Below are positions 3,646-41,265 of a stretch of DNA of 64,000 nt, one piece after another; positions within the stretch are counted from its first letter, which is position 1; each line of letters starts with the position of its first letter. Under the pieces are notes generated by a model. The model was not told the DNA's origin. It saw only the letters and a program-made list of their open reading frames with translations, and did not search any database. Source of the DNA: Bdellovibrionales bacterium. GTDB taxonomy: Bacteria; Bdellovibrionota; Bdellovibrionia; Bdellovibrionales; UBA1609. The stretch is from the NCBI GenBank assembly GCA_965219095.1, contig OZ244719.1:459071-523070 (forward strand). Direction: 5' to 3'. Position numbers and translations under genes: made by a program.

Positions 3646-3647
3646 TT

Positions 3648-6600: not shown

Positions 6601-7088
6601 AACTTCTTAGTAACTTTTTCTGTATCAAAAGCTTTTTCTAGCTTTTCTCCTATTTCAGATATTTTTGGCTCATCTTCAATGTTAAAATGTATATTTGCAA
6701 TTTTACTTATAAAGAAATCCCCGTTTTGATTTTTATAGAAGTCATGAACTCTAACTTTATTATTTTTTGAAAGATAAGACCATGAGCAATAGGTTTTATT
6801 ATCAGAAAAGATGAGAATATGTTTGTTATGAATTTTCTTTATTTCTTTATGAACTTTTTCCCTATTTAAATCAAAATTTTTAAGATTTTCTTCTCTAAAT
6901 TGTAATACTTTTGCTCCGCCAATCTCTGCTAGGGGAGAGTATTCTATTTTTTTAGAACTATCTATACGGATTGACCGATTCTTTTTATCTTCTGAGCAAT
7001 TCCAACCCAGACCCTCCGTGAACAATTCTCGTAGCTTAAAATCTCCAAGACATTCTCGTAGCTTCTTAGCATTGATAGGCGATGACAT
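3648..7088 (-). CDS. Large gamma-class N6-adenine DNA methyltransferase (Eco57I/type IIG-like architecture)
   Basis: Motif I LDPAVGSGAFL and motif IV VIVTNPPWDK. GAYYTKDEI and LNRLMFIWFLQKKGF resemble large type IIG/BREX-like MTases. Only 2 nt separate it from the helicase start. Confidence 0.8.
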   Translation of the reverse strand: MSSPINAKKLRECLGDFKLRELFTEGLGWNCSEDKKNRSIRIDSSKKIEYSPLAEIGGAKVLQFREENLKNFDLNREKVHKEIKKIHNKHILIFSDNKTYCSWSYLSKNNKVRVHDFYKNQNGDFFISKIANIHFNIEDEPKISEIGEKLEKAFDTEKVTKKFYEDFKNNHFDFQKYISGIDKKEDKNWYSSVVLNRLMFIWFLQKKGFVDNNYNYLNDKLEELKKTKKDIYYSNFLKLLFFEGFAKKLKERSKEAKKMLGEIKYLNGGLFTPHLIENKYPDIKIKDKAFEKTFDIFSKYEWHIEDSKGEGKEISPDVLGYIFEKYITEIQQKSMGAYYTKDEITSYLSRNTIEKCILDKLSKKGHSFKTISDMNLNLDTNLCKVLLTNEDSILNTLTILDPAVGSGAFLVSAMKELLNIYSPVIGKIETSNNRDLKNWYENFRNDHKSIPYGIKKNIILKNLYGVDIMKEATEVCKLRLFLSLVSSALTMEELEPLPNMDFNIMHGNSLIGFLKEPNKGQLSLLDKSYPQIKDEYNKLVNNYKKKPLSFDKLKELKEKIHKFLEENNSNLSRTLANKCNEKGLRYPEITEIKGKKKTIKKRSVFPKDFESEDDSKNLNPFHWDIAFNDIIDRGGFDVIVTNPPWDKVKTEDREFFSRYDKSIKKKKNDKKEFEEKREELLNKGKIATDYLKTEEFYQFQRNYFSSFYEKQTGKIIESDGTEKNASSDMNTYLLFTERCFNLLNKNGVIGAVLPSGLSKDDGAIALRCFIFDNLKIESLIDFQNKMEGRKGKIFEGVDSRFKFLILNLKNEKPQDKFPCHFHTRSLRILNSFPNENSMKQSIKEIKELSPRDCQIIEFKNLRDRNLLKKILSFPMLGENLKNSWNVELYREFDEKNDADLFKDKKLFSSYLPLYKGSVIHQFQYNFDLSKANRYIDRNDHKVQNRTGFAFKNKCYENHRLVIRTIASNTNERSLISAVIPKNHFISNSLYGVYINSENPKKNNHYMLFLQAFFNSFIVDYFIRQKVSSNINKKYITPLRIPRLTEKDPYFKEIVKRSALLTCIGKKFDDLADEIRVKRGGVKDKNERLKLQGEIDAMVTYTYGFSLKEFEYILSTFKTGKNRERLEKLKESALNAYQKDKFIKKAS

Positions 7089-8882: not shown

Positions 8883-9209
8883 AGCCGAATTCACTCTTTG
8901 GTAAGTTATCCATAGCTCTTTTCATAAAGAGATGGAGTCCAAAGACTTTGGTGTTGACACTATAGGATAAACATGTCCTTAGGAGTTCGTTAGTTAATAA
9001 ATGCTTGCGAACTAACGTATTCTTTTGAACTCTTTTCATCAAATTATTTTTATTTCCTCAATTTCATGTGTGATCTATAGGTGATCAATAATTAAAATGT
9101 GGGTACTATCGAGAAGTTTCAGGAAAATCAAGGTGCTTACAGTAATGGATAAGTTATTTATATTTATTTATTTTTTACTGATTCCAACAACATAGCAGAT
9201 CTCTTTTAG

Positions 9210-9635
9210 CCGATTATAGGAATTCTTGCAGCAGTTGCCATTCCTGCATTCGATGGGTTTAGAAAAAAAGCACGAAGCGGTGAAGCTAAAACTAACTTAG
9301 GCGCTCTTTATACAGCAGAAAAAGCTTTTAGTTATGAGCACTCAGGCTACTGTGCTAGTCTTGGAACAATAGGTTTTGAAGAACCCCAAGGAACACGCCA
9401 CTACGCTATTGGCTTTCATTCTACAGGTAACAAAGCTAACTCAGCAGTTACAAATTGTACTGTTACAGGAGAAAATTATGACTCTAATGGTGGAGGTACC
9501 CCTATTACTGCTATAACGGGTACATCATGTAAAGTAGACCCTGTAGACAAATTTATAGCTTGTGCTGAAGGAGAAATGGCTTCAACAAATTCCAACTGGA
9601 AAATTGATGATGAGAAAGTAATAGGTCAGCTATAA
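9210..9635 (+). pseudogene. Pilin cassette A: 5'-truncated PilA-type type IV pilin, no start codon
   Basis: Open frame begins right after in-frame TAG 9207-9209 and encodes PIIGILAAVAIPAFDGFRKKARSGEAKTNLGALYTAEKAF... up to TAA 9633-9635. It lacks the leader, the G|FTLIE site and an ATG. Confidence 0.8.
9216..9310 (+). repeat. Conserved pilin 5' core (candidate recombination site), copy A
   Basis: ATAGGAATTCTTGCAGCAGTTGCCATTCCTGCATTCGATGGGTTTAGAAAAAAAGCACGAAGCGGTGAAGCTAAAACTAACTTAGG. Similarity to the other five copies starts exactly at ATAGG. Confidence 0.85.
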
Positions 9636-9656
9636 AATACTTAAACTCCACTTTAA

Positions 9657-9690
9657 AACCCCTCTCTTAAAGAGGGGTTTTTCTTTTTTC
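9657..9690 (+). terminator. Rho-independent terminator after cassette A
   Basis: Stem CCCCTCT / AGAGGGG with loop CTTAA, followed by a T-run. Confidence 0.65.
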
Positions 9691-9785
9691 CTCACAAAAT
9701 CCAAGCTAAAAAAACCCACTCATTTTGCTTTTTGAAGTGATTTTAGGAGTGATTTTTAACTCCTATTTTTCCAGCTTGCTAGTAT

Positions 9786-10988
9786 TCATTTCACTTCCAA
9801 AATTTCTTTGCCTTTAAGTTTAAGAGGTGAAGCTTTGAAGCTTGTTTCTGAAAGTTGGTTTAAACTTTCTAATTCATACATCTGAGCTGTTTTTTCCGCC
9901 ATATCCGAGTTAATGAGAGCTACCACTTTCGCATACCTTTGAGTCATAGCTTGATCCTTATGTCCAAGACTTGCTTGGACAGCTGAGAGGCTCTTTGTGG
10001 CCATCAAAGCCATTGTGGCATAAGTATGACGGCAAATGTGAGTTCCTCTCCAAGGAAGTCCGCAAGCTCTAAAAGACTTATCAAAAGCCCAGCGAATGGT
10101 CGTATAAGGCACAATTCCACCTTCCATTGAATGAAAGACTAAGGGGTTTTTGGAATGTTTCTTTATGGCTTTTAACATCTCTATAAGTTTATCAGGAAGA
10201 GTAAGCACTCTAACCGAGGTCTTTGTCTTTGTTGATTCCCTAATCTGAGGAACATCTAAAGCCCAATCAGCTGTTCGAACCACTCTTGCAAACTTGTTTC
10301 TAAAATCAACTTCTTTCCACATAAGTCCACACGCTTCACTTACTCTCGCTCCTGTTAAAATCATAAACTGGGCTAAGTGGTAGTAAACAGGATTAGAGAT
10401 CTTTTCAAGCTCAGAAAGCCACTTTCTAATCTCTTCAGGTTTAGCAAAGTAATCAGGCCTTTTGATTTTTGAAGGCCTCTGATGTTGATAGCACCTGTTT
10501 CTATGTCCTTGGACAATGGGAAAGGTAAAGCTAGGATCAATGTTGTTCCTCCACCAATGAAGAACTGAGCCTAAACGTCTTAACTCCATTTTAAAAGAGT
10601 GACGTTGATTTTTGCACTTTTGCTTCTTAAAAAGCCATTCAATCCAATGATCTATACTGATGTGATGTAAGTTTGACATTCTAACTTTTGCTAAAGGACT
10701 GTTAAGTAAGAATTTTTGGCATATGTTTTGAATTTTCTTTTGACTGCTAGCTCTTAAAGAAACAACATACTCTTTAAGATATCTTTTTACACAATCTTCA
10801 AAGAAAATCTCCTCTCTTTCTTGTGGAAGAAAGTTAGTTCCATGAAAAAATCGTTGCTTTTGTTTTTCTTCCCATAGAATAGCTTCCGTCTTTGTTGGAA
10901 AAGACTTGGATTTGACACGAACTCCTCTAACATACACTTGAGCATAATAGACAGTTTTATTTTTTCCTTTTCTTTTTGTTATCGACAT
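9786..10988 (-). CDS. Tyrosine recombinase/integrase (module 1)
   Basis: GARVSEACGL (Arg), WRGTHICRHTYAT (HxxR) and TQRYAK (Tyr). Start chosen at MSITKRK behind a GGAG; the ORF track allows 11012. Confidence 0.9.
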   Translation of the reverse strand: MSITKRKGKNKTVYYAQVYVRGVRVKSKSFPTKTEAILWEEKQKQRFFHGTNFLPQEREEIFFEDCVKRYLKEYVVSLRASSQKKIQNICQKFLLNSPLAKVRMSNLHHISIDHWIEWLFKKQKCKNQRHSFKMELRRLGSVLHWWRNNIDPSFTFPIVQGHRNRCYQHQRPSKIKRPDYFAKPEEIRKWLSELEKISNPVYYHLAQFMILTGARVSEACGLMWKEVDFRNKFARVVRTADWALDVPQIRESTKTKTSVRVLTLPDKLIEMLKAIKKHSKNPLVFHSMEGGIVPYTTIRWAFDKSFRACGLPWRGTHICRHTYATMALMATKSLSAVQASLGHKDQAMTQRYAKVVALINSDMAEKTAQMYELESLNQLSETSFKASPLKLKGKEILEVK

Positions 10989-11236
10989 GATTTCTCCTTT
11001 TGTTGAAGCCATTTCTCTAACTTATCATTCGGGAAATAGACGTTTCGGCCTATTTTCAAGAAAGGGATTTTTCTCATAGACATCCAATTACGGATGGTCT
11101 TAGGAGAAATTTCCAAAAACTCCGAAAGCTCTCTAAGGTTTATTAAATTGTCAAAGAACAGGCCCTTTTTTTGAGGGCGAATAGTGTTCTCTAAGCTACT
11201 ATTTTTTTTGATTGGTTTCAATTCTTTTTTATCCAT
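10979..11236 (-). CDS. Excisionase-type HTH DNA-binding protein (module 1)
   Basis: MDKKELKPIKK...LRELSEFLEISPKTIRNWMSMRKIPFLKIGRNVYF is a MerR/excisionase-like HTH. It overlaps the integrase start. Confidence 0.7.
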   Translation of the reverse strand: MDKKELKPIKKNSSLENTIRPQKKGLFFDNLINLRELSEFLEISPKTIRNWMSMRKIPFLKIGRNVYFPNDKLEKWLQQKEKSCR

Positions 11237-11559
11237 TTTTATTTCTCCTTTTAAAATATGGCGAAGAAGCTTAAAAAGCTCCCTCATTTGGTTTCTTCTA
11301 AGAACTCTGACTTTTCCTCACTGAATATGGTGAATTTACGCACTCAAAAAAGTGTTGTAAATTTTACTTTTCTTGCTTTGCATTATGTAACTCCTTTCCT
11401 TTTCGATTTGTTATTTGTTTTTTGACCTTTTTTTTACTCCTTTCTGAGCCATTAAAAAAACTAAAGCTAAACTCAAAAAAACAAAAATTTTTTAACCTGA
11501 TAGAGAAAATTTTTAATTTAAAAGTTCTAAAAATTTTCTCTATTTTTTCCTCCTCCCAC

Positions 11560-11722
11560 ACCCCCCTTTCCTCTTCCCACATCTATACACCCAACTCTGT
11601 GGTACCGTGACCACCCTCTCCCATACTAAAAAAAGTATGAGCGGGAGAGGGTGGTCACGGTGAAAACCGAAGGTTTTAGCAGAGTTGGGTGTATAAAGAC
11701 AAAGGGAAAAGGAAAGGGGGGG
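11560..11722. repeat. Nested long palindrome (module 1 copy)
   Basis: Outer arms TATACACCCAACTCTG / CAGAGTTGGGTGTATA enclose arms CCGTGACCACCCTCTCCC / GGGAGAGGGTGGTCACGG. Inverted copy of 21367-21529. Confidence 0.8.
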
Positions 11723-11787
11723 CATGCAAGACATGTTTTCAGCACTATAAGAAAATTCCAGAATTTTTTTAAAACTACTCATAAAGC

Positions 11788-12057
11788 TCACTCCTTTAAG
11801 TTAAAAATTTGAAACAAATCTTGTGAAGTTTTGATCTTATCAATGAGTACAGCCTGACCTACTTTTAAGTTCTTAAAAACATCAGGTTCGCTCTTCATTT
11901 TTTTGGTCTCCAAAAGATTCCCTAAGCCTGTTTTTATAGCACTCCCTTGAAGAATTTGGCTTTGAGCTTTTAGGCTTACAAGGTCTTGAGATTCTTCTTC
12001 TATATTCATAAGAAGCCTTAAATTCTTTTTTTGTTTTTTGTACTGTTTAAATTTCAT
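11788..12057 (-). pseudogene. Remnant of T4CP (TraD/VirD4-like) gene, internally deleted
   Basis: DLVSLKAQSQIL and KMKSEPDVFKNLKVGQAVLIDKIKTSQDLFQIFNLKE match the middle and C-terminus of the intact 531-aa protein at 37447-39042. No ATPase motifs are left. Confidence 0.6.
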
Positions 12058-12307
12058 GTCTATATGATCTTGATTTGAAGGTGTTTTGCGTTTTTGAGTT
12101 CAAAAAATGTTCATCAGTGATAAGAGAAATGGATTTTTGAACAAAGTCTTTTGGGTTTATTTTCTTAGCATAAGAGCTTTGATGAGCTTTTTTTAAAAGA
12201 TCTTTTAGTTTTAAAAAAGTACGTTTTTCAAGAATAAGACGTGCTACTTTCTTCTTAACTTTTATGCCTTTTCTTTTTGTGTCTTTATTTAATTTATTTC
12301 TTTTCAC
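12047..12307 (-). CDS. Basic hypothetical protein (possibly a gene remnant)
   Basis: ORF only. Confidence 0.2.
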   Translation of the reverse strand: MKRNKLNKDTKRKGIKVKKKVARLILEKRTFLKLKDLLKKAHQSSYAKKINPKDFVQKSISLITDEHFLNSKTQNTFKSRSYRHEI

Positions 12308-13736
12308 AAATAAACCTTTCTTTTTTATTCTTTTAATTTCTAACTTAAGTGATAGTTTTTTATTTTTTTTTTAACCCTTTAGCTTAAGAGTTTTTAAAAA
12401 CCCTGAAATAGGGGTCAGGCAGGTTTTTTAAATTTGCAAAAGATAGCTAAAAAATAAATAATTTCAATAAGTTATAACGCTTAAAAATATTTTTTCACTG
12501 TGGAGTTCTCATCATCAATTCATCACTTGTTTTTACTCCCTTTTTTGTTTTTTAAAAGAGTCTTTTTCCTTTTTTTAAAAACTACAATCTCTCTTCTCTA
12601 AAATGGGCTAAGCTCATTAAATTTTTATCCATGAAATCCTCAAACAGGCTATAAAAATCTTAGAAGGGCTATTAAAAAAAAAGACTTTTTTCTTCATCCA
12701 TTAAGCTATTTCTTCTTCTTTTTTTAAAAAAAATGTATAAAACAGCTAAATTTCAGGTTTTGAAAGTAGCTTTTTAAAGCTCTTTGAAGACGATTTTTTG
12801 ACCTGTAGCTACATAGGATTTGAACCCTGTAAAAACTCTTTTTTATCTTTTAGAGATATAACATTTTCTGTCTATGGCCTCCTTTTCTTTTATGAAGCGG
12901 TTTTTTTAACTTCAAGGGTTTTGGCATGGATATTCTTTTTTTATTTCTTCGAACAAATAGAGCTGATCTTGACCGGACATGGAAAATTTCCCCCTCACTA
13001 TAGGGGAGGTGCTAACCCCCATGGGGGTTAAATTCCTTCTAAGTGATTGAATTTCTTGGTTTTTTTGTTTTTTAGCTTCTGAACTGGAAATGTTTAATTT
13101 TTTAGAAATCTTTCGTTCTGTCAAGCCTTCATAGAGACCATTTGAATCACACTTTTTTTTTACTTGAAAGTAACTGAGAGTAGATTTTTTTAAGAAGCTG
13201 ACTTAAAAAACTCATCTTTTAAAGCTGCTTTTGGATTTTCTTTTTGGCACTTCTTAAACCTCACATCGATACAATCCTGATTAGAAAGTGTTTCATCTCT
13301 TAAGCTCAAATAGGTGATCCTTTGGTATAGGAGAAAGGGCTTTTTTGAAAATATCTTTGGCTTTGATTTTTCTACTATAAGGGATTTTATGGGATTTTAC
13401 TAAAAGCTCTTTTAATTTAAAAAAGCTCCATTTAACTTCTCAAATTAGAGCCCCCTCTTTACGATCGGTCAGAAAGCTTATGGAGGCTTTAGTACAAGGT
13501 AAGCTAGAGGGTGAGAGTCAATTGATTTAATGTGCCTAACTTTTAGCCTAAGAAAGAAAATAAAAGTAGCTAAGAAGATAGGAAGTAACAACTTAAAATA
13601 TGGAAGAAGATAGAGTTTTTACTTAGCGATCGGAAAAAGACAGTAGAAGTTAGAAGCAAAAAACTTTCCAACAATTTGTTAACTTAAGCCTTTTGGAGAT
13701 ATCTTCCGTAACCTTATGCTATAAAAGAATGTCGAA

Positions 13737-14426
13737 TTATTTTTTGGAATTGGTATTACTAAAGTTTTTTGGTTTAAAGTGTTTGGCATTAATAATACTT
13801 GCACTACTTCCTAAAGCTTGAATCACAAAAAGACCTTCTTTCTCAGCCTTTCTAGCTGAACCTTGATTGGCCTTAAGATAAGCTACAGCACCATAAATTA
13901 TTTTATCTTTATACAAAGGAAGCATTTGTTTAAAGTTTTTTAATTTGTTTATAAAATGAGTCAAATCTTTTAGCCATAAGGTGGTCTTGACTTCTGTCAC
14001 AACCACTTCACTGCCATTAACTACAATAATGTCAAATTCAAAAGGCTCATCATTCCATACCCCGGAAGACTCTTGAGAAATACTCTGCACTTCAATGTTT
14101 CTTTCTTGAAGAAGTTTAACTAAATCACCTTTTACCAGAGCCTCCATAAGCTTTCCCCATTGACCTATGAAAAGTTCGTCTAACTTTGCCATACGTTTAT
14201 CAGACTTTTTAAACTGACGATCGGTCTCAAGTTTTGACTCTTTTAACAAACGCTCTGTTTCTTTGTGGGCTTTTGCGGTCTCTTGTTGAGCTTTAGAGGT
14301 TTCTTTGAGTTGGCGGTCAGTCTCTTTTTGAGCTTTTGCCAGCTCTTTAATTCCCTTAAAAGCTCCTTTAATAGATTCCTGAAGAGCTTTGGGAATCTGG
14401 TTGTTTTTTGTTACTTTTATAGCCAT
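13737..14426 (-). CDS. Coiled-coil protein with C-terminal PD-(D/E)XK (DUF3782-like) nuclease fold, paralogue 1
   Basis: KAQ(K/Q)ETDRQLKE repeats followed by GQWGKLMEALV...FEFDIIVVNGSEVVVTEVKTTL (D...E-x-K). Start taken at MAIKVTK. Confidence 0.6.
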   Translation of the reverse strand: MAIKVTKNNQIPKALQESIKGAFKGIKELAKAQKETDRQLKETSKAQQETAKAHKETERLLKESKLETDRQFKKSDKRMAKLDELFIGQWGKLMEALVKGDLVKLLQERNIEVQSISQESSGVWNDEPFEFDIIVVNGSEVVVTEVKTTLWLKDLTHFINKLKNFKQMLPLYKDKIIYGAVAYLKANQGSARKAEKEGLFVIQALGSSASIINAKHFKPKNFSNTNSKK

Positions 14427-14785
14427 ATTATTTATAGTAGTATAAAAAAACTTTCTTTTCAAGTGGTTTTAAAAAAAAAATTCTTTTAAATAGCCTCACT
14501 GCGACATCTCTCTCTAACCTACTGTAAAAACAAGAAAATAAGAAAGTGCCAGATAAAAAAGTGCCAGAAAGATGCCGCTAGAGATAATACAACAATTAAA
14601 TCCGCTTTCAAAAGTAATACAAAAGCTAAGCTCTTATAAAACTACAAGTAACTTATCACACACTTAGTTTTTTTAGAGTGAGTTCAGAGTAAAAAATTAA
14701 GGAACCTTAGAGAACTTTCAGGAAATTTTAAGATAGATAGTGACGGCTAAGTTGTTAATTTTATTATTTCCTTTTAAATTTTTTA

Positions 14786-15271
14786 ATGATTCTAAGAACT
14801 TACAAAAGTTCACAGACCATTTTTATAGGAATTCTTGCAGCATTTGCCATTCCTGCATTCGATGGGTTTAGAAAAAAAGCACGAAGCAGTGAAGCTAAAA
14901 CCAATTTAGGGGCTCTTTTTACTGCACAGAAAGCTTTTTTCTATGAACACTCAACTTATTGTGCTCATCTAGCTGATGTAGGTTTTTCTGTAACCGGAGC
15001 AGACACATATTACACCATTGGTTTTGGTGCGAACTCTGGTGGTAGTAATAGTGGTTGTACCGCAGGTACTGCACCTGACTGGAAATCAGATGGCAGTAAA
15101 GCAACTGCACAAGCTCCTGAAGCAGCTTGTGATGCTGACACAACAGATTTTACTGCTGGTGCAGTCGGTCCAAAGGATGGTACTGACCTTATAGACGTAG
15201 ATAGTAACTATCGTATGGACCAAACAAAGAAGCTTAACTCCAATAGTATTTTCGACAAAGCTGGTTGTTAA
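14786..15271 (+). CDS. Pilin cassette B: PilA-type pilin lacking the leader and processing site
   Basis: MILRTYKSSQTIF|IGILAAFAIPAFDGFRKKARSSEAKTNLGALFTAQKAFFYE... The fortuitous ATG lies upstream of the core (core starts 14825). No G|FTLIE. Confidence 0.7.
   Translation: MILRTYKSSQTIFIGILAAFAIPAFDGFRKKARSSEAKTNLGALFTAQKAFFYEHSTYCAHLADVGFSVTGADTYYTIGFGANSGGSNSGCTAGTAPDWKSDGSKATAQAPEAACDADTTDFTAGAVGPKDGTDLIDVDSNYRMDQTKKLNSNSIFDKAGC
14825..14920 (+). repeat. Conserved pilin 5' core, copy B
   Basis: Same core sequence, with one G->T change (GCAGCATTTGCC). Confidence 0.85.
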
Positions 15272-15309
15272 TAACAAAGCCTAATTCTTAGAAACACTTC
15301 TTAAGTTTT

Positions 15310-15336
15310 TCAAACCCCTCTCTTAAAGAGGGGTTT
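15310..15336. terminator. Bidirectional hairpin terminator between convergent cassettes B and C
   Basis: CAAACCCCTCT cttaa AGAGGGGTTTG, with A/T runs on both sides. Confidence 0.7.
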
Positions 15337-15358
15337 GAAATGAAGTTTAGATATTTTT

Positions 15359-15847
15359 TTATTGACTCGCAATTTTTTTGTTTTGATCAATTTGCCAGTT
15401 GGAATTTGTTGAAGCCGTTTCTCCTTCAGCACAAGCTATGAACTTCTCAGGAGTTGTTGGAGTTGCTTCTTCTGTTAAGCAAGCAGCATCCAGATCCGAT
15501 GCTGATTTTTTATTAGCAGTAGTAGCAGTAGAATCATAAGCTAGTGTTCCTGAGGAGGGACAAGCAGCAGAAGCAGCACTAGTTGTACCTGCAGCCTTAA
15601 ATCCAACAGCGTAGTGGCGTGTTCCATCAGGTTCATCAAAACCTACTGCTTTAAGATTAGAACAGAAGCCGTTTTGTTCATAGAAAAAAGCTTTCTGTGC
15701 AGTAAAAAGAGCCCCTAAGTTAGTTTTAGCTTCACCGCTTCGTGCTTTTTTTCTAAACCCATCGAATGCAGGAATGGCAACTGCTGCAAGAATTCCTATA
15801 AATTGATTTGTAAACTTTTGTAAGTTTGCAGAATCACTAAAAAACAA
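15359..15847 (-). CDS. Pilin cassette C: PilA-type pilin lacking the leader and processing site
   Basis: MFFSDSANLQKFTNQF|IGILAAVAIPAFDGFRKKARSGEAKTNLGALFTAQKAFFYE... The core starts at 15799 on the minus strand. Confidence 0.7.
   Translation of the reverse strand: MFFSDSANLQKFTNQFIGILAAVAIPAFDGFRKKARSGEAKTNLGALFTAQKAFFYEQNGFCSNLKAVGFDEPDGTRHYAVGFKAAGTTSAASAACPSSGTLAYDSTATTANKKSASDLDAACLTEEATPTTPEKFIACAEGETASTNSNWQIDQNKKIASQ
15704..15799 (-). repeat. Conserved pilin 5' core, copy C
   Basis: Reverse complement of the core sequence. Confidence 0.85.
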
Positions 15848-16178
15848 AAAGAAAATAATAAATTAACCTACCCATCTATTCCCGAATGTTAAGACTTTTC
15901 CCCTACATTGAACCTAGTTGATCACGACAAAACTCCGTACAAGAACGCATATGAGAATCACGATAGTTTTGATTAAAAACAAACTTTAATTTCTTTTGTA
16001 CTTACTTTTGAAAGCCAGGATTTAATTGTTGTATTATCTCTAGCGACATCTTTCTGGTACTTTCTTATTTTCCTGTTATATTACAGTAGGTTAGAGAGAG
16101 ATGTTGCAGTGAGGCTATTTGAAAGAAATTCTCTTAAAATCACTTGAAAAGAAAGTTTTTTTATATTATTATAACCGC

Positions 16179-16994
16179 ATGTCTTTAAAAAAAACCAATC
16201 ATTCAATTCCTAAAGCTGTATGGGCTTCGATTCAAGCTGTTGCTAAAGAAACTCAAGAACTGGCAAAGTCTCAAAAAGAGAATGCCAAAGCTCAAAAAGA
16301 GACTGACCGCCAACTCAAAGAATCTCAAAAAGAAATCGCTAAAGCTCAAAAAGAGAATGCCAAAGCTCAAAAAGAGACTGATCGCCAACTCAAAGAAACC
16401 TCTAAAGCTCAAAAAGAGACTGATCGCCAACTCAAAGAATCTCAAAAAGAAACCGCAAAAGCCCACAAAGAAACAGAGCGTTTGTTAAAAGACTCAAAAC
16501 TTGAGACCGATCGTCAGTTTATAAAGTCTGATAAACGTATAGCAAAGTTAGACGAACTTTTCACAGGTCAATGGGGAAAGCTTATGGAGGCTCTGGTAAA
16601 AGGTGATTTAGTTAAACTTCTTCAAGAAAGAAACATTGAAGTGCAGAGTATTTCTCGAGAGTCTTCCGGGATATGGAATGATGAGCCTTTTGAATTCGAC
16701 ATTATTGTAGTTAATGGCAGTGAAGTGGTTGTGACAGAAGTCAAGACTACCTTATGGCTAAAAGATTTAACTCATTTTATAAACAAATTAAAAAACTTTA
16801 AACAAATGCTTCCTTTGTATAAAGATAAAATAATTTATGGTGCTGTAGCTTATCTTAAGTTCAATCAAGGTTCAGCTAGAAAGGCTGAGAAAGAAGGTCT
16901 TTTTGTGATTCGAGCTTTAGGAAGTAGTGCAAGCATTATTAATGCCAAACACTTTAAACCAAAAGTTTTTAGTAATACCAATTCCAAAAAATAA
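16179..16994 (+). CDS. Coiled-coil protein with C-terminal PD-(D/E)XK (DUF3782-like) nuclease fold, paralogue 2
   Basis: Start taken at MSLKKTNHSIPKAVW. It has more KAQKETDRQLKES repeats than paralogue 1, and the C-terminal domain is nearly identical. Confidence 0.6.
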   Translation: MSLKKTNHSIPKAVWASIQAVAKETQELAKSQKENAKAQKETDRQLKESQKEIAKAQKENAKAQKETDRQLKETSKAQKETDRQLKESQKETAKAHKETERLLKDSKLETDRQFIKSDKRIAKLDELFTGQWGKLMEALVKGDLVKLLQERNIEVQSISRESSGIWNDEPFEFDIIVVNGSEVVVTEVKTTLWLKDLTHFINKLKNFKQMLPLYKDKIIYGAVAYLKFNQGSARKAEKEGLFVIRALGSSASIINAKHFKPKVFSNTNSKK

Positions 16995-17926
16995 TTCGAC
17001 ATTCTTTTGTAGCATAAGGTTCCAGAAGAGATCTCCAAAAGGCTTAAGTTCTCAAAATACATAGGACTTAAGTTAACAGTAAGTCGGTTTCTTAACTGAG
17101 TTACAATTTAGGGGTCAACATGGGGACACTGCCCCCATGTATAGGGGCAAAAGAAAATTTTTATGCTCCTTTCTCCAGTTATAACCCAAGTTTAGAATCA
17201 AAATGGAGGAAGAAAATCAACGTCACTCTGATAAACTTCCAAAGGGTTTTTATGGTTTGTTTGAAGATTTAAAACCAAGCTCTCATATCACTTTGACCGA
17301 TCGTAAAGAGGGGGGCTCCAATTTGAGAAGTTAAATGGAGCTTTTTTAAAAGATGTGAGCTCTGTCCACAATAAAGGAAAAAGTGTGTCTAGAATTGGAC
17401 AAAACAAAAGAGATGCCAAAGCTTAAAATCACTTAAGATCATTTCATTTTTTTTATTCAGAAAAAATGTTAAGAAAGTGTCTGACCCCTTAAAAGCTTAT
17501 TTTTCACTCTATCTTAAGATTTTCTTATTGGGGAGTATTTTCTGCTTTTCATTACTTATAAAAAACAAAGTCTATAGTTTCTTTCATTCTAAGAAAGCAG
17601 ATGAAACATCAAAGGAAGTTTGATGACAAAAGAAAATTTGTCTCAAAAAGACGAGAAGAAAAGGTGCAAAATGAAAAAACAAGAATTCCATTTGAGGGTT
17701 CCTAGAAAGACCTTTTTTTTATCCCAACTGCAATTCACTAGTGCAACCTTTTCTTTCATCATAACCTCATAAAATCCCTTATGGTAGAAAAATCAAAGCC
17801 AAAGATATTTTTGAAAAAGCCCTTTGTCTTATAACAGAGGATCATTTGTTTGAACTAAGAGATTCAAGTATAGATATAAAGGATTGATTAGCTCTTTTTG
17901 AAATAACAACTTTTATTACAGTCTTA

Positions 17927-18241
17927 TCATTCATCTTTGTAGTCCTCTGTTTTCTCTTTTTTTTTGAACTTTTTATAATAGTCTTTTGCAGTTAAACTAC
18001 TAAGCGACTGGAAAAACAGCCTATCTTCAAAGCTAGGCTTGAGATGCTTTAATAGCTGAACTACGTCTTTTCCTCCTAGCTTAAGGCCTAGGATTCCTTT
18101 TTCACATTTTTTTAAATCAGAAAGAGGAACGTTCAGAATAACAGCAATTTCTTCCTGTGATCTCCCTGACCTAATACGCATCTCTCGAATTTTACGCCCT
18201 AAGCAGTAGGTTATCATTGTCTTTAAAAGTTCTTTTTTCAT
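17927..18241 (-). CDS. XRE-family HTH regulator
   Basis: LGRKIREMRIRSGRSQEEIAVILNVPLSDLKKCEKG. Confidence 0.6.
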   Translation of the reverse strand: MKKELLKTMITYCLGRKIREMRIRSGRSQEEIAVILNVPLSDLKKCEKGILGLKLGGKDVVQLLKHLKPSFEDRLFFQSLSSLTAKDYYKKFKKKEKTEDYKDE

Positions 18242-18372
18242 AAGATGTACTGTCTTTGAGTCTTTTAGGGTTTTCTTTCAAATACATACGACCGTATGGT
18301 AACTAAAAGAAAATAGAAAGTCTAGAGTAATTACATATGTATATAACGATTTAATGCAGGGAGATGTAAACT

Positions 18373-18630
18373 TTGGCTTATAACCCTAAAGGCATTCAAA
18401 ACACTGTCAAGCGATCTGAATGGCAGAGCATTCAAAAAATTGGCTCTAATATAAAAAAGCTTAGAGAAAAAAGAAACTGGACTTTAGAATCAGTAGAAGA
18501 TCGTGGCTATCGTTCATGGAAGCACTGGCAAGCTATTGAGGCTGGGAAAAGAAACGTCAATGTGACAACCATTCTTAGAATCGCAAAAGTTTTGAAAGTA
18601 AAGCCTGAACAACTTTTTTCAAAACTTTAA
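18373..18630 (+). CDS. XRE-family HTH regulator (divergent partner)
   Basis: GSNIKKLREKRNWTLESVEDRG...NVNVTTILRIAKVLKVKPEQLF. Confidence 0.6.
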   Translation: MAYNPKGIQNTVKRSEWQSIQKIGSNIKKLREKRNWTLESVEDRGYRSWKHWQAIEAGKRNVNVTTILRIAKVLKVKPEQLFSKL

Positions 18631-18712
18631 TTCTTTAATAAGAAGACAGTTTTCAAATTCATAATATAAAGTAAAGACATTGATCTGTTTTCTTTAATTT
18701 CTCTAAAAAACC

Positions 18713-20245
18713 GTAACTGCTCACCTACATTGTTCAGTTATCCCTAACTTTAGACCTGTTTTAAGATAAAAGTCTTGCTCTTACAGATTTTCTTTTAAAT
18801 ACTTTTTTCAAATGACAATAAATAAGACCTCCATCAGAAATGAGATTAAAAATATAAGAAGTGACTTTGATAAGTTTGCAAAGAAAGGTTCTGTGCCTAC
18901 TGAGATTTCTGTGATTGTTGAATCTCTCTTTAAGGTTGTGAACATTCTGATTGTTGTGTTTTTAGAAAAACAGGTTCGAAAAAATTCCAGCAACAGCGGT
19001 CTTCCTCCTTCGCAAGATTTTAGTCGTCAAGGGAATCGTAATAAGAAAGCTAGTGGGAGTCAGAAAAAGGGCTCTAGACTTGATAACAGTAAAGATACAA
19101 ACAGTGAGGAGACTGTCTCTCCCTCAGAGTGTTCTCAGTGTGGGATGTGTTTAAAGACAGCAGAGGTAAAAAGCCTTGAGAAGCGTAAAAAGATTGATAT
19201 TTTTTATGAAATTCAGACCCATACTGTAACTTCTGAAGTTAAGGATTGTCCCTCATGTGGAGCTAGAAATAAAGGTCAATTCCCTAAAGGTATGAGTGGT
19301 CCTCTTCAGTATGGTGTAGGCATTAGAGCTTCCATCATCAATTTCATTATAGTTCAGATGCTGTCTTTTAGAGCGTGTTGGGGAACATTACATGGGGCTT
19401 ATAGGTCGAATGATTTCTCCTGCAGTTATGTTGAGATACATTGCTGAATTAGGAGAGTTTCTTAAAAGTTGGGAAGAGCAGATGAAAGAAAAGATACTTG
19501 AATCAGAGGTCATTCATGTTGATGAGACCTCTATGAGGGTTAAGGGTAAAAACTACTGGATTCATACTTATAGTTCAGGAGAATTAGTCTTGCAGTTTCT
19601 CCACCTTTCAGGTGGAAGGGAAGCCATAAAAGATATTGGTCTCTTGGATAGATATGCAGGAGTGCTTGTGCATGATTGTTGGAGTCCTTACTTTTGTTAT
19701 GATAAGATAACTCATGCTTTGTGTGTGGCTCACCTTTTGAGAGAGCTTAAATTTATAGAAGAAAGCAATGGATTCAAATGGGCTACAAATCTCAAAAAAC
19801 TTCTTAAAGAGACTGTGGAGTTAGTTCATAAAAAAGAGTCAAGAGTTCTGACTCAAAAAGAGTACGAAACTCTTCAGAGAAGGTATAGGAGTATTCTTAC
19901 AAAAGGCTTAAAAGAGCTTCCAGAATTTCCTAAGAAAAATGGCAAGAAAGGACGAATAAAGCATACACAAGCTCAAAACCTTTGGCTGCGATTTAAAAAG
20001 TATGAAGCAGAAATACTGTGTTTTGCTAAAAGAAAGAACGTAGATCCTACTAATAACAGAGCTGAAAGAGATCTAAGAATGACTAAAGTGAAAAAGAAAG
20101 TGTCAGGGTGTTTCAGAACAGAAGAAATGGCGAAATATTTTTGTCGTATTACCAGCTATGTTAAAACAATGAGAAATAGAGGGTATTCTTCTTTAGAAGC
20201 CATCTCTATGGCTTTAAATAAAAACTTACGAGAGTGAGCAGTTAC
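18713..20245 (+). mobile_element. IS66-family insertion sequence (single-ORF type) with 8-bp target duplication
   Basis: Terminal inverted repeats GTAACTGCTCAC (18713) and GTGAGCAGTTAC (ends 20245). Flanked by direct AAAAAACC at 18705-18712 and 20246-20253. The uninterrupted target is visible in the paralogous copy at about 44005. Confidence 0.85.
18812..20237 (+). pseudogene. IS66-family transposase, frameshifted
   Basis: CPSCG zinc-finger motif, DETSMRV, HDCWSPY, CVAHLLREL and TNNRAERDLR. Two overlapping frames (18812-19447 and 19392-20237). Confidence 0.8.
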
Positions 20246-20330
20246 AAAAAACCAAGCTATTGTTTTCATATATGCACATTTTTAAGAATCTGTTTGAAAG
20301 AAATACACACTTGAATGCTGTTTGAATGTT

Positions 20331-20460
20331 GCAGATCTGTTACAAATTTGCATATTTGTTACAAATGTAACAGATCTGTTACAAAATTGCATATTTGTTA
20401 CAAATGTAACAGATCTGTTACAAATGTATCGGATTCAGCAAATTTGTAACAAATATGCAA
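20331..20460. repeat. GTTACAAAT iteron/palindrome array (module 2 copy, one extra 41-bp unit)
   Basis: Repeated TTGCATATTTGTTACAAATGTAACAGATCTGTTACAAA units. AACAGATCTGTT is a perfect palindrome. The outer 19-bp inverted repeat is TTGCATATTTGTTACAAAT / ATTTGTAACAAATATGCAA. Confidence 0.8.
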
Positions 20461-20564
20461 CTTTTCAAAAAAAAACAAGAAAAACCTTTTTTTTCATTTA
20501 AAACTTTATTGTAGCAAAAGGTTTTATAAAAGAGTCCTTTTTATAAAACCAAAAAGAAAGGAGT

Positions 20565-21301
20565 ATGTATGAAGCAAAAAACAAAAAAAGAGTTCTTATG
20601 AAGATAGAAGCACCTCAAAACCTTGTAAGCTTAAAAGCTCAAATCCAGACCCTTACTTCTCCAGAATTTAGAAACTCCTCTATACATGAAGAAAAAGAAA
20701 TCGATCTCCTGGATGTTATGAAAAAAAATCAAATAGCCTATTTCCAGTTGAATTTAAACAGCTATGGTTTTTTAGGTAAGAAAATCGGTAAAATTCTAGT
20801 TCAAGATCTAAAGGTTATAAGCTCTCAGATTCAATCAGGACAAGTGGATTTTAAGCCTTTACTTTTAGGGGTCTTGATTGATGAATTTGGATCTTTTGCT
20901 ACACCTGATTTTTCAGATTTTTTAAAGCAAGTAAGATCTGCTGGTACAGGAGTTCACTTATTTTGCCAAGGCTTAGCTGATTTAAATGTTGTAAGTCAGA
21001 GTTTTAGCAATCAAGTGTTGGGAAGTGCGGCCACTAAAATCATACTTCGACAAGATGTGAAGAGGACTCTCGAAAAATGGGCTTTTACAGTTGTCACTAG
21101 GGGCACTGTAGGTAGGAGTTTTCAGGTCAGTGAACGCATTCTGGGGAACTTAAAAAAACAGGCTTAGGGAATCTTTTGGAGACCAAAAAAATGAAGATCG
21201 AACATGATGTTTTTAAGAGCTTAAAAGTAGGTCAGGCTGTACTCATTGATAAGATCAAAACCTCACAAGATTTGTTTCAAATTTTTAGCTTAAAGGAGTG
21301 A
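20565..21301 (+). pseudogene. T4CP (TraD/VirD4-like) gene lacking the N-terminal half, frameshifted near the 3' end
   Basis: Aligns to residues of about 290-531 of the 37447-39042 protein (QIAYFQLNLNSYG, LIDEFGSFAT, GVHLFCQGLADL). The Walker A part is absent. The C-terminal KMKIEHDVFKSLKVGQAVLIDK is in another frame (21171-21301). Confidence 0.75.
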
Positions 21302-21366
21302 GCTTTATGAGTAGTTTTAAAAAAATTCTGGAATTTTCTTATAGTGCTAAAAACATGTCTTGCATG

Positions 21367-21529
21367 CACCCCCTTTCCTTTTCCCTTTGTCTTTATACAC
21401 CCAACTCTGCTAAAACCTTCGGTTTTCACCGTGACCACCCTCTCCCGCTCATACTTTTTTTAGTATGGGAGAGGGTGGTCACGGTACCACAGAGTTGGGT
21501 GTATAGATGTGGGAAGAGGAAAGGGGGGT
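21367..21529. repeat. Nested long palindrome (module 2 copy), oriT-like
   Basis: Outer arms CCCCCTTTCCTTTTCCC..TATACACCCAACTCTG / CAGAGTTGGGTGTATA..GGGAAGAGGAAAGGGGGG. Inner arms CCGTGACCACCCTCTCCC(gctc)ATACT / AGTATGGGAGAGGGTGGTCACGG. Confidence 0.8.
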
Positions 21530-21851
21530 GTGAGAGGAGGAAAAAATAGAGAAAATTTTTAGAACTTTTAAATTAAAAATTTTCTCTATCAGGTTAAAAA
21601 ATTTTTGTTTTTTTAAGTTTAACTTGAGTTTTTTTAATGGCCGAGAAAGGAGTAAAAAAAAAGGTCAAAAAACAAATAACAAATCAATCATGAAAGGAGT
21701 AGCATAATGCAAAGCAAGAAAAGTAAAATTTACGACACTTTTTTGAGTGCGTAAATTCATCATATTCAGTGAGGAAAAGTCAGAGTTCTTAGAAGAAACC
21801 AAATGAGGAAGTTTTTTAAGCTTCTTCGCCATATTTTGAAAGGAGAAAAAA

Positions 21852-22109
21852 ATGGATAAAAAAGAATTGAAACCAATTAAAAAAGGTAGTAGTTTAGAGA
21901 ACACTATTCGCCCTCAAAAAAAGGGCCTGTTCTTTGACAATTTAATAACCGTAGAGGAATTAGCCTTAGCGTTTGGGCTGTCTCCTAGAACGATTAAAAA
22001 TTGGGTGAGTTTAAGACAAATCCCCTTTATTCAGTTCAGAAGAAGGACTTACTTTCTTAAAGACAGTATCCATAGATGGCTTCAACAAAAGGAGAAATCA
22101 TGTCAATAA
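21852..22109 (+). CDS. Excisionase-type HTH DNA-binding protein (module 2)
   Basis: MDKKELKPIKK...VEELALAFGLSPRTIKNWVSLRQIPFIQF. It overlaps the integrase start. Confidence 0.7.
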   Translation: MDKKELKPIKKGSSLENTIRPQKKGLFFDNLITVEELALAFGLSPRTIKNWVSLRQIPFIQFRRRTYFLKDSIHRWLQQKEKSCQ

Positions 22110-23275
22110 CCAAACGTAAAAGGAAAAATAAAATAACATATCAAGCAGAAATTTATGTAAGAGGAATTCGTCTGAAAGCAAAAAGCTTTCAAACAAAAAC
22201 AGAAGCCTGTATATGGCACGATAAGGAAAAAAAACGTCTTCAAGAAGGAAGAGTTTCTCTTCAAGAAGAGTTAAGAGAACTTTTCTTTGAAGACTGTGTG
22301 AGAAGGTATCTTAAAGAGTATGTTCCTACTTTAAGAGATTCCAGTCAAAAGAAGATTCAACTTCTTTGCGAGAGGTTTTTTCTACAAAGTCCTTTAGCAA
22401 AAACAAAAATGTCAGATATAGACCATGTCAGTATTGACACTTGGATTGACTGGCTTTTTAGAAGCTTTAAAAACACTGTCAACCGCCATTCTTTTAGAAT
22501 AGAGTTAAGGCGTCTTGGCTCTGTTCTTCACTGGTGGAGAAACTACCTTGATCCAAGCTTTAGCTTTCCTATTGTTCGTGGTCATAGAAATCGGTGTTAT
22601 GTGAAGAAGCGAGAATCTAAGGTGAAAAGGCCAGATTACTTTGCTAAACCTGAAGAGGTGAGGGCTTGGCTTAACGAACTTAAGAAGATTCAAAACCCTG
22701 TTTATTACCGTTTAGCTCAGTTTATGATTTTAACAGGAGCGAGAGTAAGTGAAGCTTGTGGACTTATGTGGAGTGAAATTGATTTTAAGAATCGTTTTGC
22801 AAGAGTTGTTAGAACAGCTGACTGGTCTTCTGAAAAACCTCAAATTCTAGAAACCACAAAGACTAAGACTTCTGTAAGAGTTTTAACTCTTCCTGAAAAG
22901 CTCATAGAGCTTTTGTATGAAATGAAAGAGGAATCTAATAATCCTCTTGTGTTTTACTCTTCAGAAGGAAAGGTCGTTCCTTACACTACCATTCGTTGGG
23001 CCTTTGATAAGTCTTTTAAGACCTGCAATCTTCCTTGGAGAGGAACTCATATTTGCCGTCATACTTATGCCACAATGGCTTTAATGGCGACAAAAAGCCT
23101 CTCAGCTGTCCAAGCAAGTCTTGGGCATAAGGATCAAGCTATGACTCAAAGGTATGCAAAAGTGGTGGCTCTCATTAACTCGGATATGGCAGAAAAAACA
23201 GCTCAGATGTATGAAATGAACTCTTTAGGTTCATCTCCATCACGACAGATCACGACGTCTTTACAGACAAAATGA
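22100..23275 (+). CDS. Tyrosine recombinase/integrase (module 2)
   Basis: Same catalytic motifs as module 1. ATG 22100 lies behind GGAGAAATC; the ORF track allows 22076. Confidence 0.9.
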   Translation: MSITKRKRKNKITYQAEIYVRGIRLKAKSFQTKTEACIWHDKEKKRLQEGRVSLQEELRELFFEDCVRRYLKEYVPTLRDSSQKKIQLLCERFFLQSPLAKTKMSDIDHVSIDTWIDWLFRSFKNTVNRHSFRIELRRLGSVLHWWRNYLDPSFSFPIVRGHRNRCYVKKRESKVKRPDYFAKPEEVRAWLNELKKIQNPVYYRLAQFMILTGARVSEACGLMWSEIDFKNRFARVVRTADWSSEKPQILETTKTKTSVRVLTLPEKLIELLYEMKEESNNPLVFYSSEGKVVPYTTIRWAFDKSFKTCNLPWRGTHICRHTYATMALMATKSLSAVQASLGHKDQAMTQRYAKVVALINSDMAEKTAQMYEMNSLGSSPSRQITTSLQTK

Positions 23276-23481
23276 ACTTTAGGATCAAAAGGATACTGGT
23301 AGTTGAATTTTAAAATTTTTTAAAATTTAAAAAAAGAATTCTAGCAGGAACACTTGGAATGAAAAACTCACGACGGAAATCACGACTTCTCACTAAAATA
23401 GCTAAGATATCACTCATAAAGTAGAGCGTGAAAGAAGTTCTAGCAGTGGAAAGTTTAAGGGATTTTTTGAAAGTAAAAATT

Positions 23482-23509
23482 AAAACCCTCTCTAAAAAAA
23501 GAGGGTTTT
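23482..23509. terminator. Hairpin terminator between int2 and cassette D
   Basis: AAAACCCTC tctaaaaaaa GAGGGTTTT. Confidence 0.6.
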
Positions 23510-23535
23510 AAGAAAAGTTTTTTAAACTTAGAAAG

Positions 23536-23970
23536 TTAATATGCTGTTAATATTTTGTCTTGCTTGATTTCCCATTTCTGAACACTGGTTTGGCCTGAGT
23601 TCCCCTCTGCACAAGCTGTAAATTTCTGGGGATTCACACTATTATCTATTTTACATGCTGCTCTTGCAATAGCTGAAGTTTTCGTGCCTACAGTATTTTC
23701 ATGTGCCAGATCACTTGCTCCACCTGTCACACACCCTGACGGTAGTGTTGTAAGTGCAGTATTAAAGCCAATTGTGTAATGGGTTGCTCCATCAGGTTTA
23801 TCAAAACCTATGATGTTAAGATTATGGCAATACCCTGTGCTTTCATACTGAAAAGCTTTTTCTGCTGTATAAAGAGCCCCTAAGTTAGTTTTAGCTTCAC
23901 CGCTTCGTGCTTTTTTTCTAAACCCATCGAATGCAGGAATGGCAACTGCTGCAAGAATTCCTATAATCGG
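23536..23970 (-). pseudogene. Pilin cassette D: 5'-truncated PilA-type pilin, no start codon
   Basis: The minus-strand frame opens after an in-frame TAG (23971-23973) and encodes PIIGILAAVAIPAFDGFRKKARSGEAKTNLGALYTAEKAFQYE...KWEIKQDKILTAY. Only the last 64 aa follow an ATG. Confidence 0.8.
23870..23964 (-). repeat. Conserved pilin 5' core, copy D
   Basis: Reverse complement of the core. The upstream 175 bp are also shared with copy A. Confidence 0.85.
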
Positions 23971-33740: not shown

Positions 33741-33742
33741 AT

Positions 33743-41188: not shown

Positions 41189-41265
41189 ATTGTAAAGATT
41201 TAAAACCACTTCAAAAAGCAAAATGAATGGGTTTTTTTAGCTTGGATTTTGTGAGTTAAGAAAAG

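Follow-up and report, generated by a model that had tools for sequence, protein, structure and literature searches.

Type IV pili serve Bdellovibrio-like bacteria as the contact organ for surfaces and prey, and are also a common phage receptor. Among the mechanisms that rearrange genes of this kind or integrate within genes, shufflons depend on an expressed, constant 5′ part of the gene directly beside the DNA that inverts, and the phages 21 and e14 integrate in icd, supplying a replacement end. The structure of the R64-type IncI shufflon has been described (PMC5430464), as have islands with dusA-specific integrases, which integrate inside a protein-coding gene (PMC4482086). An earlier note on a 64-kb stretch from a Bdellovibrionales bacterium (contig OZ244719.1, positions 459,071 to 523,070; hereafter the window, numbered from its first letter) pointed out a mirror-image unit, in which two convergent cassettes lie between inverted cores and inverted nuclease genes, and compared it to a shufflon segment. 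The present analysis holds, with moderate confidence, that this unit marks where two arrays of pilin-targeting integrative elements with opposite orientations meet, the elements being mostly decayed and derived from integrative and conjugative elements (ICEs), and that the mirror unit probably does not work as a switch. Full-text literature searches found no description of integrative elements that target pilin genes.

Pilin cassettes and their common core

Six leaderless pilin bodies are present in the window, with 5′ edges at 9214 and 14823 on the forward strand and at 15801, 23966, 41706 and 47702 on the reverse strand. The elements that carry them (E1 to E4) are described in the next section.

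9214-9635, forward strand: cassette A, leaderless pilin of 139 codons, the body carried by E1, followed by a terminator hairpin at 9657-9683
14823-15271, forward strand: cassette B, leaderless pilin of 148 open codons from IGILAAF, with its core at 14823-14949 and matches to Pfam Pilin_GH/PilA/ComP
15359-15801, reverse strand: cassette C, leaderless pilin of 146 open codons from IGILAAV, with its core at 15675-15801 and matches to Pfam Pilin_GH and PilA above threshold
23536-23966, reverse strand: cassette D, leaderless pilin of 142 codons, carried by E2
41315-41706, reverse strand: cassette E, leaderless pilin downstream of the integrase gene at 39986-41188 (E3)
47257-47702, reverse strand: cassette F, leaderless pilin downstream of the integrase gene at 45795-46994 (E4)

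The reading frames of all six cassettes are open (129-148 codons), and each cassette ends in its own GC-rich hairpin. Matches of B and C to Pfam Pilin_GH and Pilin_PilA, and to the NCBIfam model of Myxococcus-type PilA over model positions 24-124, confirm the proposal that these two are alternative C-terminal (body) segments of one gene family, which is that of the PilA-like type IV pilins. Searches with a 62-nt core pattern found six perfect copies within 39 kb, two on the forward and four on the reverse strand, where none would be expected by chance. The homology of all six cassettes starts at one nucleotide (TTATAGGAATTCTTGCAGCA, codons I-G-I-L-A-A), remains near-invariant for about 100 nt and then becomes divergent. 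The core, comprising the first 100-128 nt or so of the cassette, has a common 5′ edge at TTATAGG and encodes IGILAAVAIPAFDGFRKKAR... of the conserved pilin N-terminal helix. Synonymous divergence is 0-0.23 over the first 36 codons and ranges from 0.5 to saturation in the remaining cassette, which indicates that the core has been homogenised at the DNA level, since protein constraint alone would not produce this pattern. Judging from these features, the cores are very probably recombination sites. A private variant is common to cores B and C (LFTAQKAFFYE, as against LYTAEKA in A, D, E and F), and cassettes A, C and E have 3′ blocks in common (FIACAEG...NSNWQI).

The missing part of the cassettes can be recognised from a full-length relative pilin of another sample (P0125, locus L004), which reads ...KRGFSLIELMVVVAI up to the boundary and IGVLAAVAIPQFDGFRKKAR beyond it, or over a longer stretch MTNICDKIRLFKTIKNKRGFSLIELMVVVAI followed by IGVLAAVAIPQFDGFRKKAR.... 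The core aligns to codons ~13-50 of this mature pilin, the homology beginning between AI and IG, and a cassette is therefore a pilin minus the leader and approximately the first 13 mature residues. A six-frame motif scan of the whole window, including the GFxLIE motif, detected no prepilin leader in any frame. What lies ahead of both unit cores is a spacer and then a nuclease-like gene pointing the other way. Expression of B or C from a local start was considered and rejected, as the in-frame extensions upstream of them (MILRTYKSSQTIF- and MFFSDSANLQKFTNQF-) show no prepilin signal; these extensions are not kept in other species or in the cassettes with the second type of flank described below (flank X), where stops occur directly upstream. 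With no promoter, leader or constant region beside either unit core, inverting 14823-15801 would not switch expression.

Integrases and the two opposed arrays

Convergent tyrosine integrase genes, coding for proteins of 399-408 aa, follow the hairpins of cassettes A, D, E and F (9786-11012, 22076-23275, 39986-41188 and 45795-46994, respectively). Each overlaps a gene for an HTH_17 excisionase-like protein (xis), and TraD/TraG genes or fragments lie upstream of both. In the two elements that meet at the mirror unit, these genes are located as follows.

9786-11012 and 10979-11287, reverse strand: integrase gene and HTH_17 excisionase-like gene of E1
21852-22109 and 22076-23275, forward strand: excisionase-like gene and integrase gene of E2 (Pfam HTH_17 and Phage_integrase; PHROG integrase and excisionase)

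Read in the pilin direction, an element consists of core, pilin body, hairpin, integrase, xis, cargo and a far end, the latter being either a nuclease-spacer module (beside B, C and E) or flank X (beside A and D). The flank upstream of cassette D, at 23967-24130, mirrors 9050-9213, and the core, spacer and nuclease beside cassette E (to 42847) represent a third copy of the arm found at the unit. The open frame reads away from the edge and has a terminator of its own ahead of the convergent integrase, so that a cassette would give a complete gene after fusion. The elements are organised as a forward array (A, E1 at 9.2-14.8 kb, B) and a reverse array (F, E4, E, E3, D, E2 at 15.8-24.0 kb, C), and repeat comparisons bear out the observation that module 1 (9-15.3 kb) has the opposite orientation to modules 2-4. 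Between cores on the same strand the distances are 5609, 8165, 17740 and 5996 nt, and direct core repeats with whole elements between them are a hallmark of tandem integration rather than of an inversion cluster. A TraD/TraG-type coupling protein of 531 aa is encoded in E3, with fragments only in E1, E2 and E4, and no relaxase was identified in the window. The right array runs into fragments of the insertion sequences (IS) IS66 and ISL3 (48.3-49.7 kb) and then into housekeeping genes, which indicates that its 5′ end has been lost. Before the left array come flank X, an SDH-type protease and a restriction/helicase pair, and this array may extend past the start of the window.

The xis-integrase block of E2 (21852-23275) is 98.3% identical to that of E4 (45571-46994), within a 3.25-kb duplicate of the same identity (98.3%; 20247-23500 in E2 and 44005-47214 in E4) that comprises a TraD fragment, a small open reading frame (ORF), xis and integrase. 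This identity stops at or near the cassette hairpins, and cassettes D and F differ, indicating that pilin bodies have been exchanged relative to the integrase modules.

The integrase matches the PHROG family phrog_1 over residues 12-380, and its partner matches excisionase-type HTH proteins; otherwise the integrase has weak Xer-type matches and a generic C-terminal similarity to IntI (residues 323-365). A tblastn comparison with the 72,556 plasmids of PLSDB gave matches only to generic site-specific integrases, none above 25% identity (8 records from Escherichia and 25 from Salmonella). According to these library matches, made without a direct alignment to Rci, the recombinases are predicted to be an integration/excision module of phage or ICE type and not Rci-like. 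An integron was rejected, considering that each element of 6-18 kb has one integrase of only generic IntI similarity and that the terminator-like hairpins differ between cassettes. Piv-type inversion was also rejected, with no IS110/Piv-like gene among the ORFs of the window.

These data bear on the possibility of an active shufflon-like switch, where a tyrosine recombinase would invert the DNA between opposite cores (14823-15801, or larger segments reaching an expression site outside the window) and swap bodies behind one 5′ end. The shufflon reading of the earlier note is supported in part, by alternative segments lying tail to tail between inverted cores and by tyrosine recombinase genes nearby, but the unit has no adjoining constant 5′ part or sfx sites, and no Rci-type recombinase was recognised from the library matches. 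The 97% identity of the inverted cores over 128 nt, the presence of perfect cores in both orientations together with four intact integrase genes, the open frames in all cassettes and the homogenised core are all in keeping with such a switch, as is the possible continuation of the left array past the window start. Nonetheless, no leader or constant region occurs beside the unit cores or anywhere in the window, so that a local inversion would swap two silent bodies. Furthermore, the recombinases are placed at element ends with excisionase-like genes and have only generic plasmid matches, the related arrays at L001 and L085 are purely direct, with no related array inverted, and a protein search found the B and C proteins only with their present flanks, a single arrangement thus being on record. 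An active switch at this locus is considered very unlikely.

Relatives in other assemblies

The exact core pattern gave no matches in the genome contig collection, and degenerate core patterns gave none in the viral and metagenome contig collections. The integrase family is large in Bdellovibrionota, and integrases 58-98% identical to those of the window were located at L001 (two tandem modules), L002, L084 and L085 (two modules), in three other assemblies. All of the located relatives in this range show xis, integrase and then a convergent leaderless pilin. The pilin 5′ edge is readable in 11 cassettes, six in the window and five in related contigs, and all five of the latter are cut at the same codons, (I)IG(I/V)LAAVAIP; the L084 cassette ends with its contig. 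Conjugation (type IV secretion) genes of the VirB4/TraG-like, TrbI and TraD/TrwB types are also carried by L084 and L002, from which intact members look like ICEs. On the 717-kb contig of the window itself, at least two further leaderless cassettes with the nuclease-type flank occur (P0122 and P0124).

Integrase relatives at 47% identity or less were inspected at 79 GTDB loci and 80 metagenome loci, where no leaderless pilin was found beside the integrase, except possibly in L094 in another arrangement. Association with a pilin is thus confined to integrases of the clade at 58% identity or more. Some of the more distant loci may sit beside tRNA genes, as suggested by tRNA-like translated stretches just downstream of the L051 integrase. 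For the elements of the window a tRNA target was rejected, as no tRNA genes occur in the window or in L001-L003. No known RNA families were detected in the window at gathering score.

Additional observations have been made on three loci outside the window. In L094 (VSKW01013477.1, 1-1449), a 41%-identical integrase divergently adjoins a pilin fragment starting ...LFSLIELMVVVVIIGILAAIAIP, without the leader glycine or a start codon, which may represent another pilin-associated attachment (att) site with a different cut point and orientation. The xis-integrase module of E3 (39784-41201) is 97.5% identical to positions 9799-11216 of L084, an ICE-like contig (ERZ25072076), in a backbone of ~70% identity, and this comparison indicates a recent exchange between elements in different hosts or samples. 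The L004 contig (ERZ25070844 ctg7083, 15,985 bp) consists of three tandem 5.28-kb units, each encoding a 2OG-Fe(II) oxygenase and an IS630-type transposase besides a full-length pilin; either the tandem repeat is genuine or a small circle was assembled as a concatemer.

The mirror-image unit

The part order that drew attention to the unit, namely inverted nuclease genes, inverted cores, two cassettes and a hairpin, is present and far beyond chance. Besides the cassettes, the unit contains the following features.

13723-13758, reverse strand: solo terminal inverted repeat of the IS630 family, overlapped by the final codons of nuclease copy 1, interior side leftward
13737-14426 (or to 14462), reverse strand: nuclease-like gene, copy 1, with N-terminal coiled-coil repeats and a C-terminal Hjc-like PD-(D/E)XK domain (DUF8196), at the far end of E1
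14427-14822, no strand: spacer, far-end arm of E1, partly homologous to 15802-16178
15310-15336, no strand: hairpin common to the convergent cassettes B and C, from fold energies and sequence comparison
15802-16178, no strand: spacer, far-end arm of E2, 88-95% identical to the third copy at 41707-42034
16179 (16119)-16994, forward strand: nuclease-like gene, copy 2, with extra 21/42-nt coiled-coil repeats, at the far end of E2
16973-17008, forward strand: solo terminal inverted repeat of the IS630 family, closing nuclease copy 2, interior side rightward

The flanking nuclease-like ORFs are inverted copies, as had been stated, with ~97% identity over ~600 nt (13679-14277 against 17053-16454) in a gapped alignment of the left half with the reverse complement of the right half, beyond which coiled-coil repeat indels and a diverged N-terminus are found. 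They lie in an inverted repeat of 619 nt (13675-14293/16438-17056) that is 96% complementary, and the inverted cores (14822-14949 and 15675-15802) are 97% complementary over 128 nt. The spacers were also described as inverted copies, which is the case for 14412-14636 against 16190-15972 (~80-85%, with indels) and for 14735-14822 (~75%), but 14637-14734 is essentially unrelated. Past the core, cassettes B and C do differ, having no relation by alignment or by synonymous divergence (dS 1.4). The limits of the symmetry at 13727 and 17006, on the other hand, were not upheld, as the palindrome runs patchily over 9050-24130 at 73-97% identity. Its blocks include flank X with the core and cassette start (90%), the integrase (73-83%), a 521-nt block (97%) and the nuclease (95-97%), with unrelated stretches in between, such as 12308-13675 compared to 17057-17926. 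Patchy symmetry of this kind is as expected for related mosaic elements. An assembly foldback artefact was ruled out, since the arms differ by ~3-4% plus indels and the centre is asymmetric.

A single strong hairpin was correctly recognised between B and C, with a stem of 13-15 bp, a centroid energy of -21 to -22.5 kcal/mol and a z-score of about -3.4 on both strands; neither side has a good U-tract. Its stem and loop recur after cassette A at 9657-9683, the loop is oriented as after cassettes A and B, and the 3′ untranslated region (UTR) of cassette C is homologous to that of cassette A. These similarities would fit a recombination breakpoint inside the palindromic stem.

The symmetry could also be the fossil of one inverted duplication, where an array segment was copied in inverted form, by template switching or recombination at the palindromic hairpin, with gene conversion and cassette replacement later on. 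This account has the same components as the reading of two opposed arrays, and its history alone differs. The extent of the whole patchy palindrome, centred on the hairpin, is in agreement with it, as are the private 128-nt variant common to cores B and C, and the hairpin loop of the A/B type next to a cassette C UTR like that of cassette A, consistent with a breakpoint in the stem. Overwriting or duplication of the E2 integrase block with that of E4 (98.3%) could explain the low identity between the E1 and E2 integrases. However, an arm identity that varies from 73% to 97%, the large unrelated stretches and the unrelated variable parts of B and C mean that several independent later events would be required, and a single inverted duplication is considered unlikely.

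IS630-like ends were listed among the inverted flanks in the earlier note. They are genuine matches to the IS630-family terminal inverted repeat, but they are not unit termini. A 36-nt end pattern has four matches in the window, where none is expected (13723-13758, 16973-17008, 42826-42861 and 55863-55898), the last of which is the right end of a full IS630-family copy (~54.50-55.90 kb). A solo end remnant closes the 3′ end of every nuclease copy, including the third (42826-42861), and the interior sides of the two in the unit point away from it; they are therefore inherited solo remnants and not unit boundaries. A composite IS630 transposon bounded by both ends was rejected, given that the interiors face outward and the third nuclease copy has the same remnant.

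Proposed mechanism

In the proposed reading of pilin-targeting integrative elements, the integrase would recombine the core of the element with the same sequence in a resident pilin gene, with the crossover at TTATAGG, where the homology has its sharp 5′ edge, or immediately beside it. After integration, the pilin body of the element would be joined to the promoter, leader and first ~13 mature residues of the host gene. The body that stood there before would end up at the opposite end of the element, silent and without a leader, and arrays would grow by repeated integrations. Cassettes B and C would then be the innermost and oldest displaced bodies, which converge on one hairpin. The mirror flanks would arise from the nuclease-spacer module with which both sister elements, E1 and E2, end, one copy lying next to each of B and C. 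The opposite orientation of the arrays would need an extra event, which may have been the presence of two convergent target genes, an inversion or an inverted duplication; inversions bounded by palindromic hairpins can shift the switch point between cassettes, but cannot create it. Features of att type were found in support of site-specific integration: an integrase and an excisionase-like gene beside the core, direct core repeats with a sharp edge, a homogenised core that matches part of the target gene, and conservation of this anatomy in other organisms.

Several observations weigh against this reading. The junction of leader and core (attL) is absent in all 11 cassettes read to their 5′ edge, array ends being either outside the window or lost to IS; no pilin 5′ end closes the right-hand array, which terminates in IS debris instead. 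When proteins were searched with the core, the contig of the window gave no full-length pilin carrying it, but only the leaderless P0122 and P0124. Neither an empty target site nor an excised form was seen, and no close relatives were found in the genome and metagenome collections. Near-identical integrase modules are accompanied by different cassettes (98.3% for E2/E4, and 97.5% for L084/E3 in a 70% backbone), which simple site-specific integration does not explain, so that additional homologous exchange is needed. Lastly, the pairs of sister elements are symmetric (E1/E2 of nuclease type, followed by the flank-X type), an arrangement that fits an inverted duplication at least equally well.

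The exchange of cassettes also bears on a third alternative, a pilS-like archive, where leaderless cassettes would donate sequence to RecA-dependent gene conversion of a pilin elsewhere, with the conserved core and 3′ ends as arms and the mobile elements as mere carriers. Such an archive is compatible with the proposed elements. The copies are promoterless, 5′-truncated and open-frame with a homogenised 5′ block, and the 3′ blocks common to A, C and E, together with the cassettes exchanged relative to integrase modules, speak for it. Nonetheless, the truncation point is the same to the nucleotide across species and tied to an integrase, which points to site-specific and not homologous recombination. 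No expression locus is known, and the cassettes are 5-18 kb apart in element DNA instead of clustered. The archive is considered very unlikely.

As a tentative generalisation, held at somewhat below even confidence, a clade of conjugative or mobilisable integrative elements in Bdellovibrionota may use the conserved stretch encoding the N-terminus of the host's major type IV pilin as att site, bringing in promoterless replacement bodies that would re-tip the pili at every integration. Displaced bodies would form an archive, and the integrase could re-express them by deletion between same-strand cores or by inversion between opposite-strand cores, as around 14.8-15.8 kb, in effect a hybrid of a shufflon and gene replacement in the style of lysogenic conversion.

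Nucleases, cargo and other features

The genes flanking the unit are predicted PD-(D/E)XK nucleases (Hjc-like, DUF8196). A nuclease copy of the window falls below the Pfam Hjc threshold (16.5 bits), but a 72%-identical homologue passes it (24.9 against 21.1 bits). PF26618/DUF8196 is recorded for the homologues, and D174, E187 and K189 are invariant in 19 of them, as in PD-(D/E)XK enzymes. The family has over 2000 members, with several copies per genome in unrelated neighbourhoods (e.g., L166 and L167), which argues that the nuclease is not intrinsically linked to pilin cores. Its occurrence beside three cores reflects the make-up of these elements and not a general tie to pilin recombination. 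The coiled-coil part of the gene consists of tandem 21/42/75-nt units (KETDRQLKESQKE...) at 16183-16514 and 42099-42442, and the unit copy number differs among all three gene copies.

A palindromic motif, (A/G)AACTTACAAAAGTT(T/C), precedes the core edge by ~12-30 nt in flanks of the nuclease type (cassettes B, C and E and L001), at 14796-14811, 15812-15827, the 41717-41732 region and L001 ~9540. In the flank of B it reads GAACTTACAAAAGTTC (14796-14811, ~12 nt upstream of the core edge) and in the E2 spacer AAACTTACAAAAGTTT (15812-15827, reverse strand). Paired changes in the copy beside B keep the palindrome (GAACTT...AAGTTC versus AAACTT...AAGTTT), and its RNA fold is not significant; the motif may be a protein-binding site, either an arm site or a regulatory one.

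Other parts of the elements carry additional features. The best-kept block of E1, E2 and E4 (97%), located between the TraD remnant and xis at 11418-11938, 21151-21671 and 44870-45390, spans 521 nt and has a doubtful 83-aa frame as sole ORF and no Rfam match, and may have a function without coding for protein, for instance as an origin of transfer. On the reverse strand at 370-7088, a type IIG restriction-methyltransferase of 1146 aa (PADLOC E 1e-93) is encoded with an HKD(PLD)+Snf2 helicase of 1091 aa (E 4e-55), and this defence pair is probably the cargo of a further element with flank X (9050-9213) as its far end. In E3, a forward-strand cargo operon at 32994-35837, with a JAB/ThiF-like E1 protein at 34120-35496 (PADLOC 'E1-E2', best E 5e-11) and small ORFs, looks like a ubiquitin-like conjugation/defence cluster from these matches. 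Inverted pairs of IS66-like/ISL3-like sequences, 91-98% identical, are found at 18712-19237/48267-48793, 26350-27731/56393-57785 and 48951-49730/56253-57033, and homologous recombination between them could flip tens of kb including several pilin cores.

Comparison with known systems

If the proposed mechanism is true, horizontal transfer would rewrite the specificity of the cell surface in one step, with the genome storing earlier pilin versions, and the swap of a pilin body could change adhesion, prey or partner recognition and susceptibility to pilus-specific phages. It would constitute a new route of pilin variation beside gene conversion in Neisseria, Piv inversion in Moraxella and the Rci shufflons of IncI plasmids, and an unusual integrase, with a target chosen to change the gene product rather than to restore it. 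For annotation, it would explain the arrays of 'partial pilin' ORFs beside integrases in these metagenome-assembled genomes, as well as the assembly breaks found there.

The unit resembles the R64 shufflon (Rci, sfx, pilV) in having tail-to-tail C-terminal segments of a pilin-family gene, inverted repeats, a tyrosine recombinase and what may be a conjugative setting. It differs in that its repeats are coding, exceed 100 nt and have a sharp 5′ edge instead of being 19-bp sfx sites, that most cores are direct, that each multi-kb element has an integrase with an excisionase-like partner, and that no constant 5′ part adjoins. The pilin is also distinct, being a PilA-like major pilin (T4a, Myxococcus type) where the R64 shufflon has PilV. 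The Piv system of Moraxella bovis and Moraxella lacunata (tfpQ/tfpI) is similar with regard to two opposed pilin bodies with a common N-terminal coding repeat, but Piv is a DEDD recombinase of the IS110/IS492 type and its segment adjoins an expressed constant region, neither of which is observed here. As in Neisseria pilE/pilS, several silent, promoterless and 5′-truncated pilin copies with conserved and variable blocks occur; pilS, however, depends on RecA-mediated gene conversion with no integrase per copy, whereas each copy of the present locus lies at an element junction with a nucleotide-sharp edge.

Tandem accretion of ICEs and genomic islands shares the direct att repeats between whole mosaic elements with their own integrases, as well as decay and IS insertions, although the att site within a pilin coding region, the variable body beside each att and the two opposed arrays are particular to this locus. 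With dusA islands and icd phages, the elements have in common an integrase beside an att site formed by part of the target gene, an element-borne portion that would keep the gene intact and a displaced partial copy at the other junction. In contrast to these, ~140 of ~170 codons would be replaced by hypervariable sequence, so that the product would change and not be restored; the junction with an intact 5′ end was not found in the cassettes read, and the target would be a surface-filament subunit, with arrays of silent variants.

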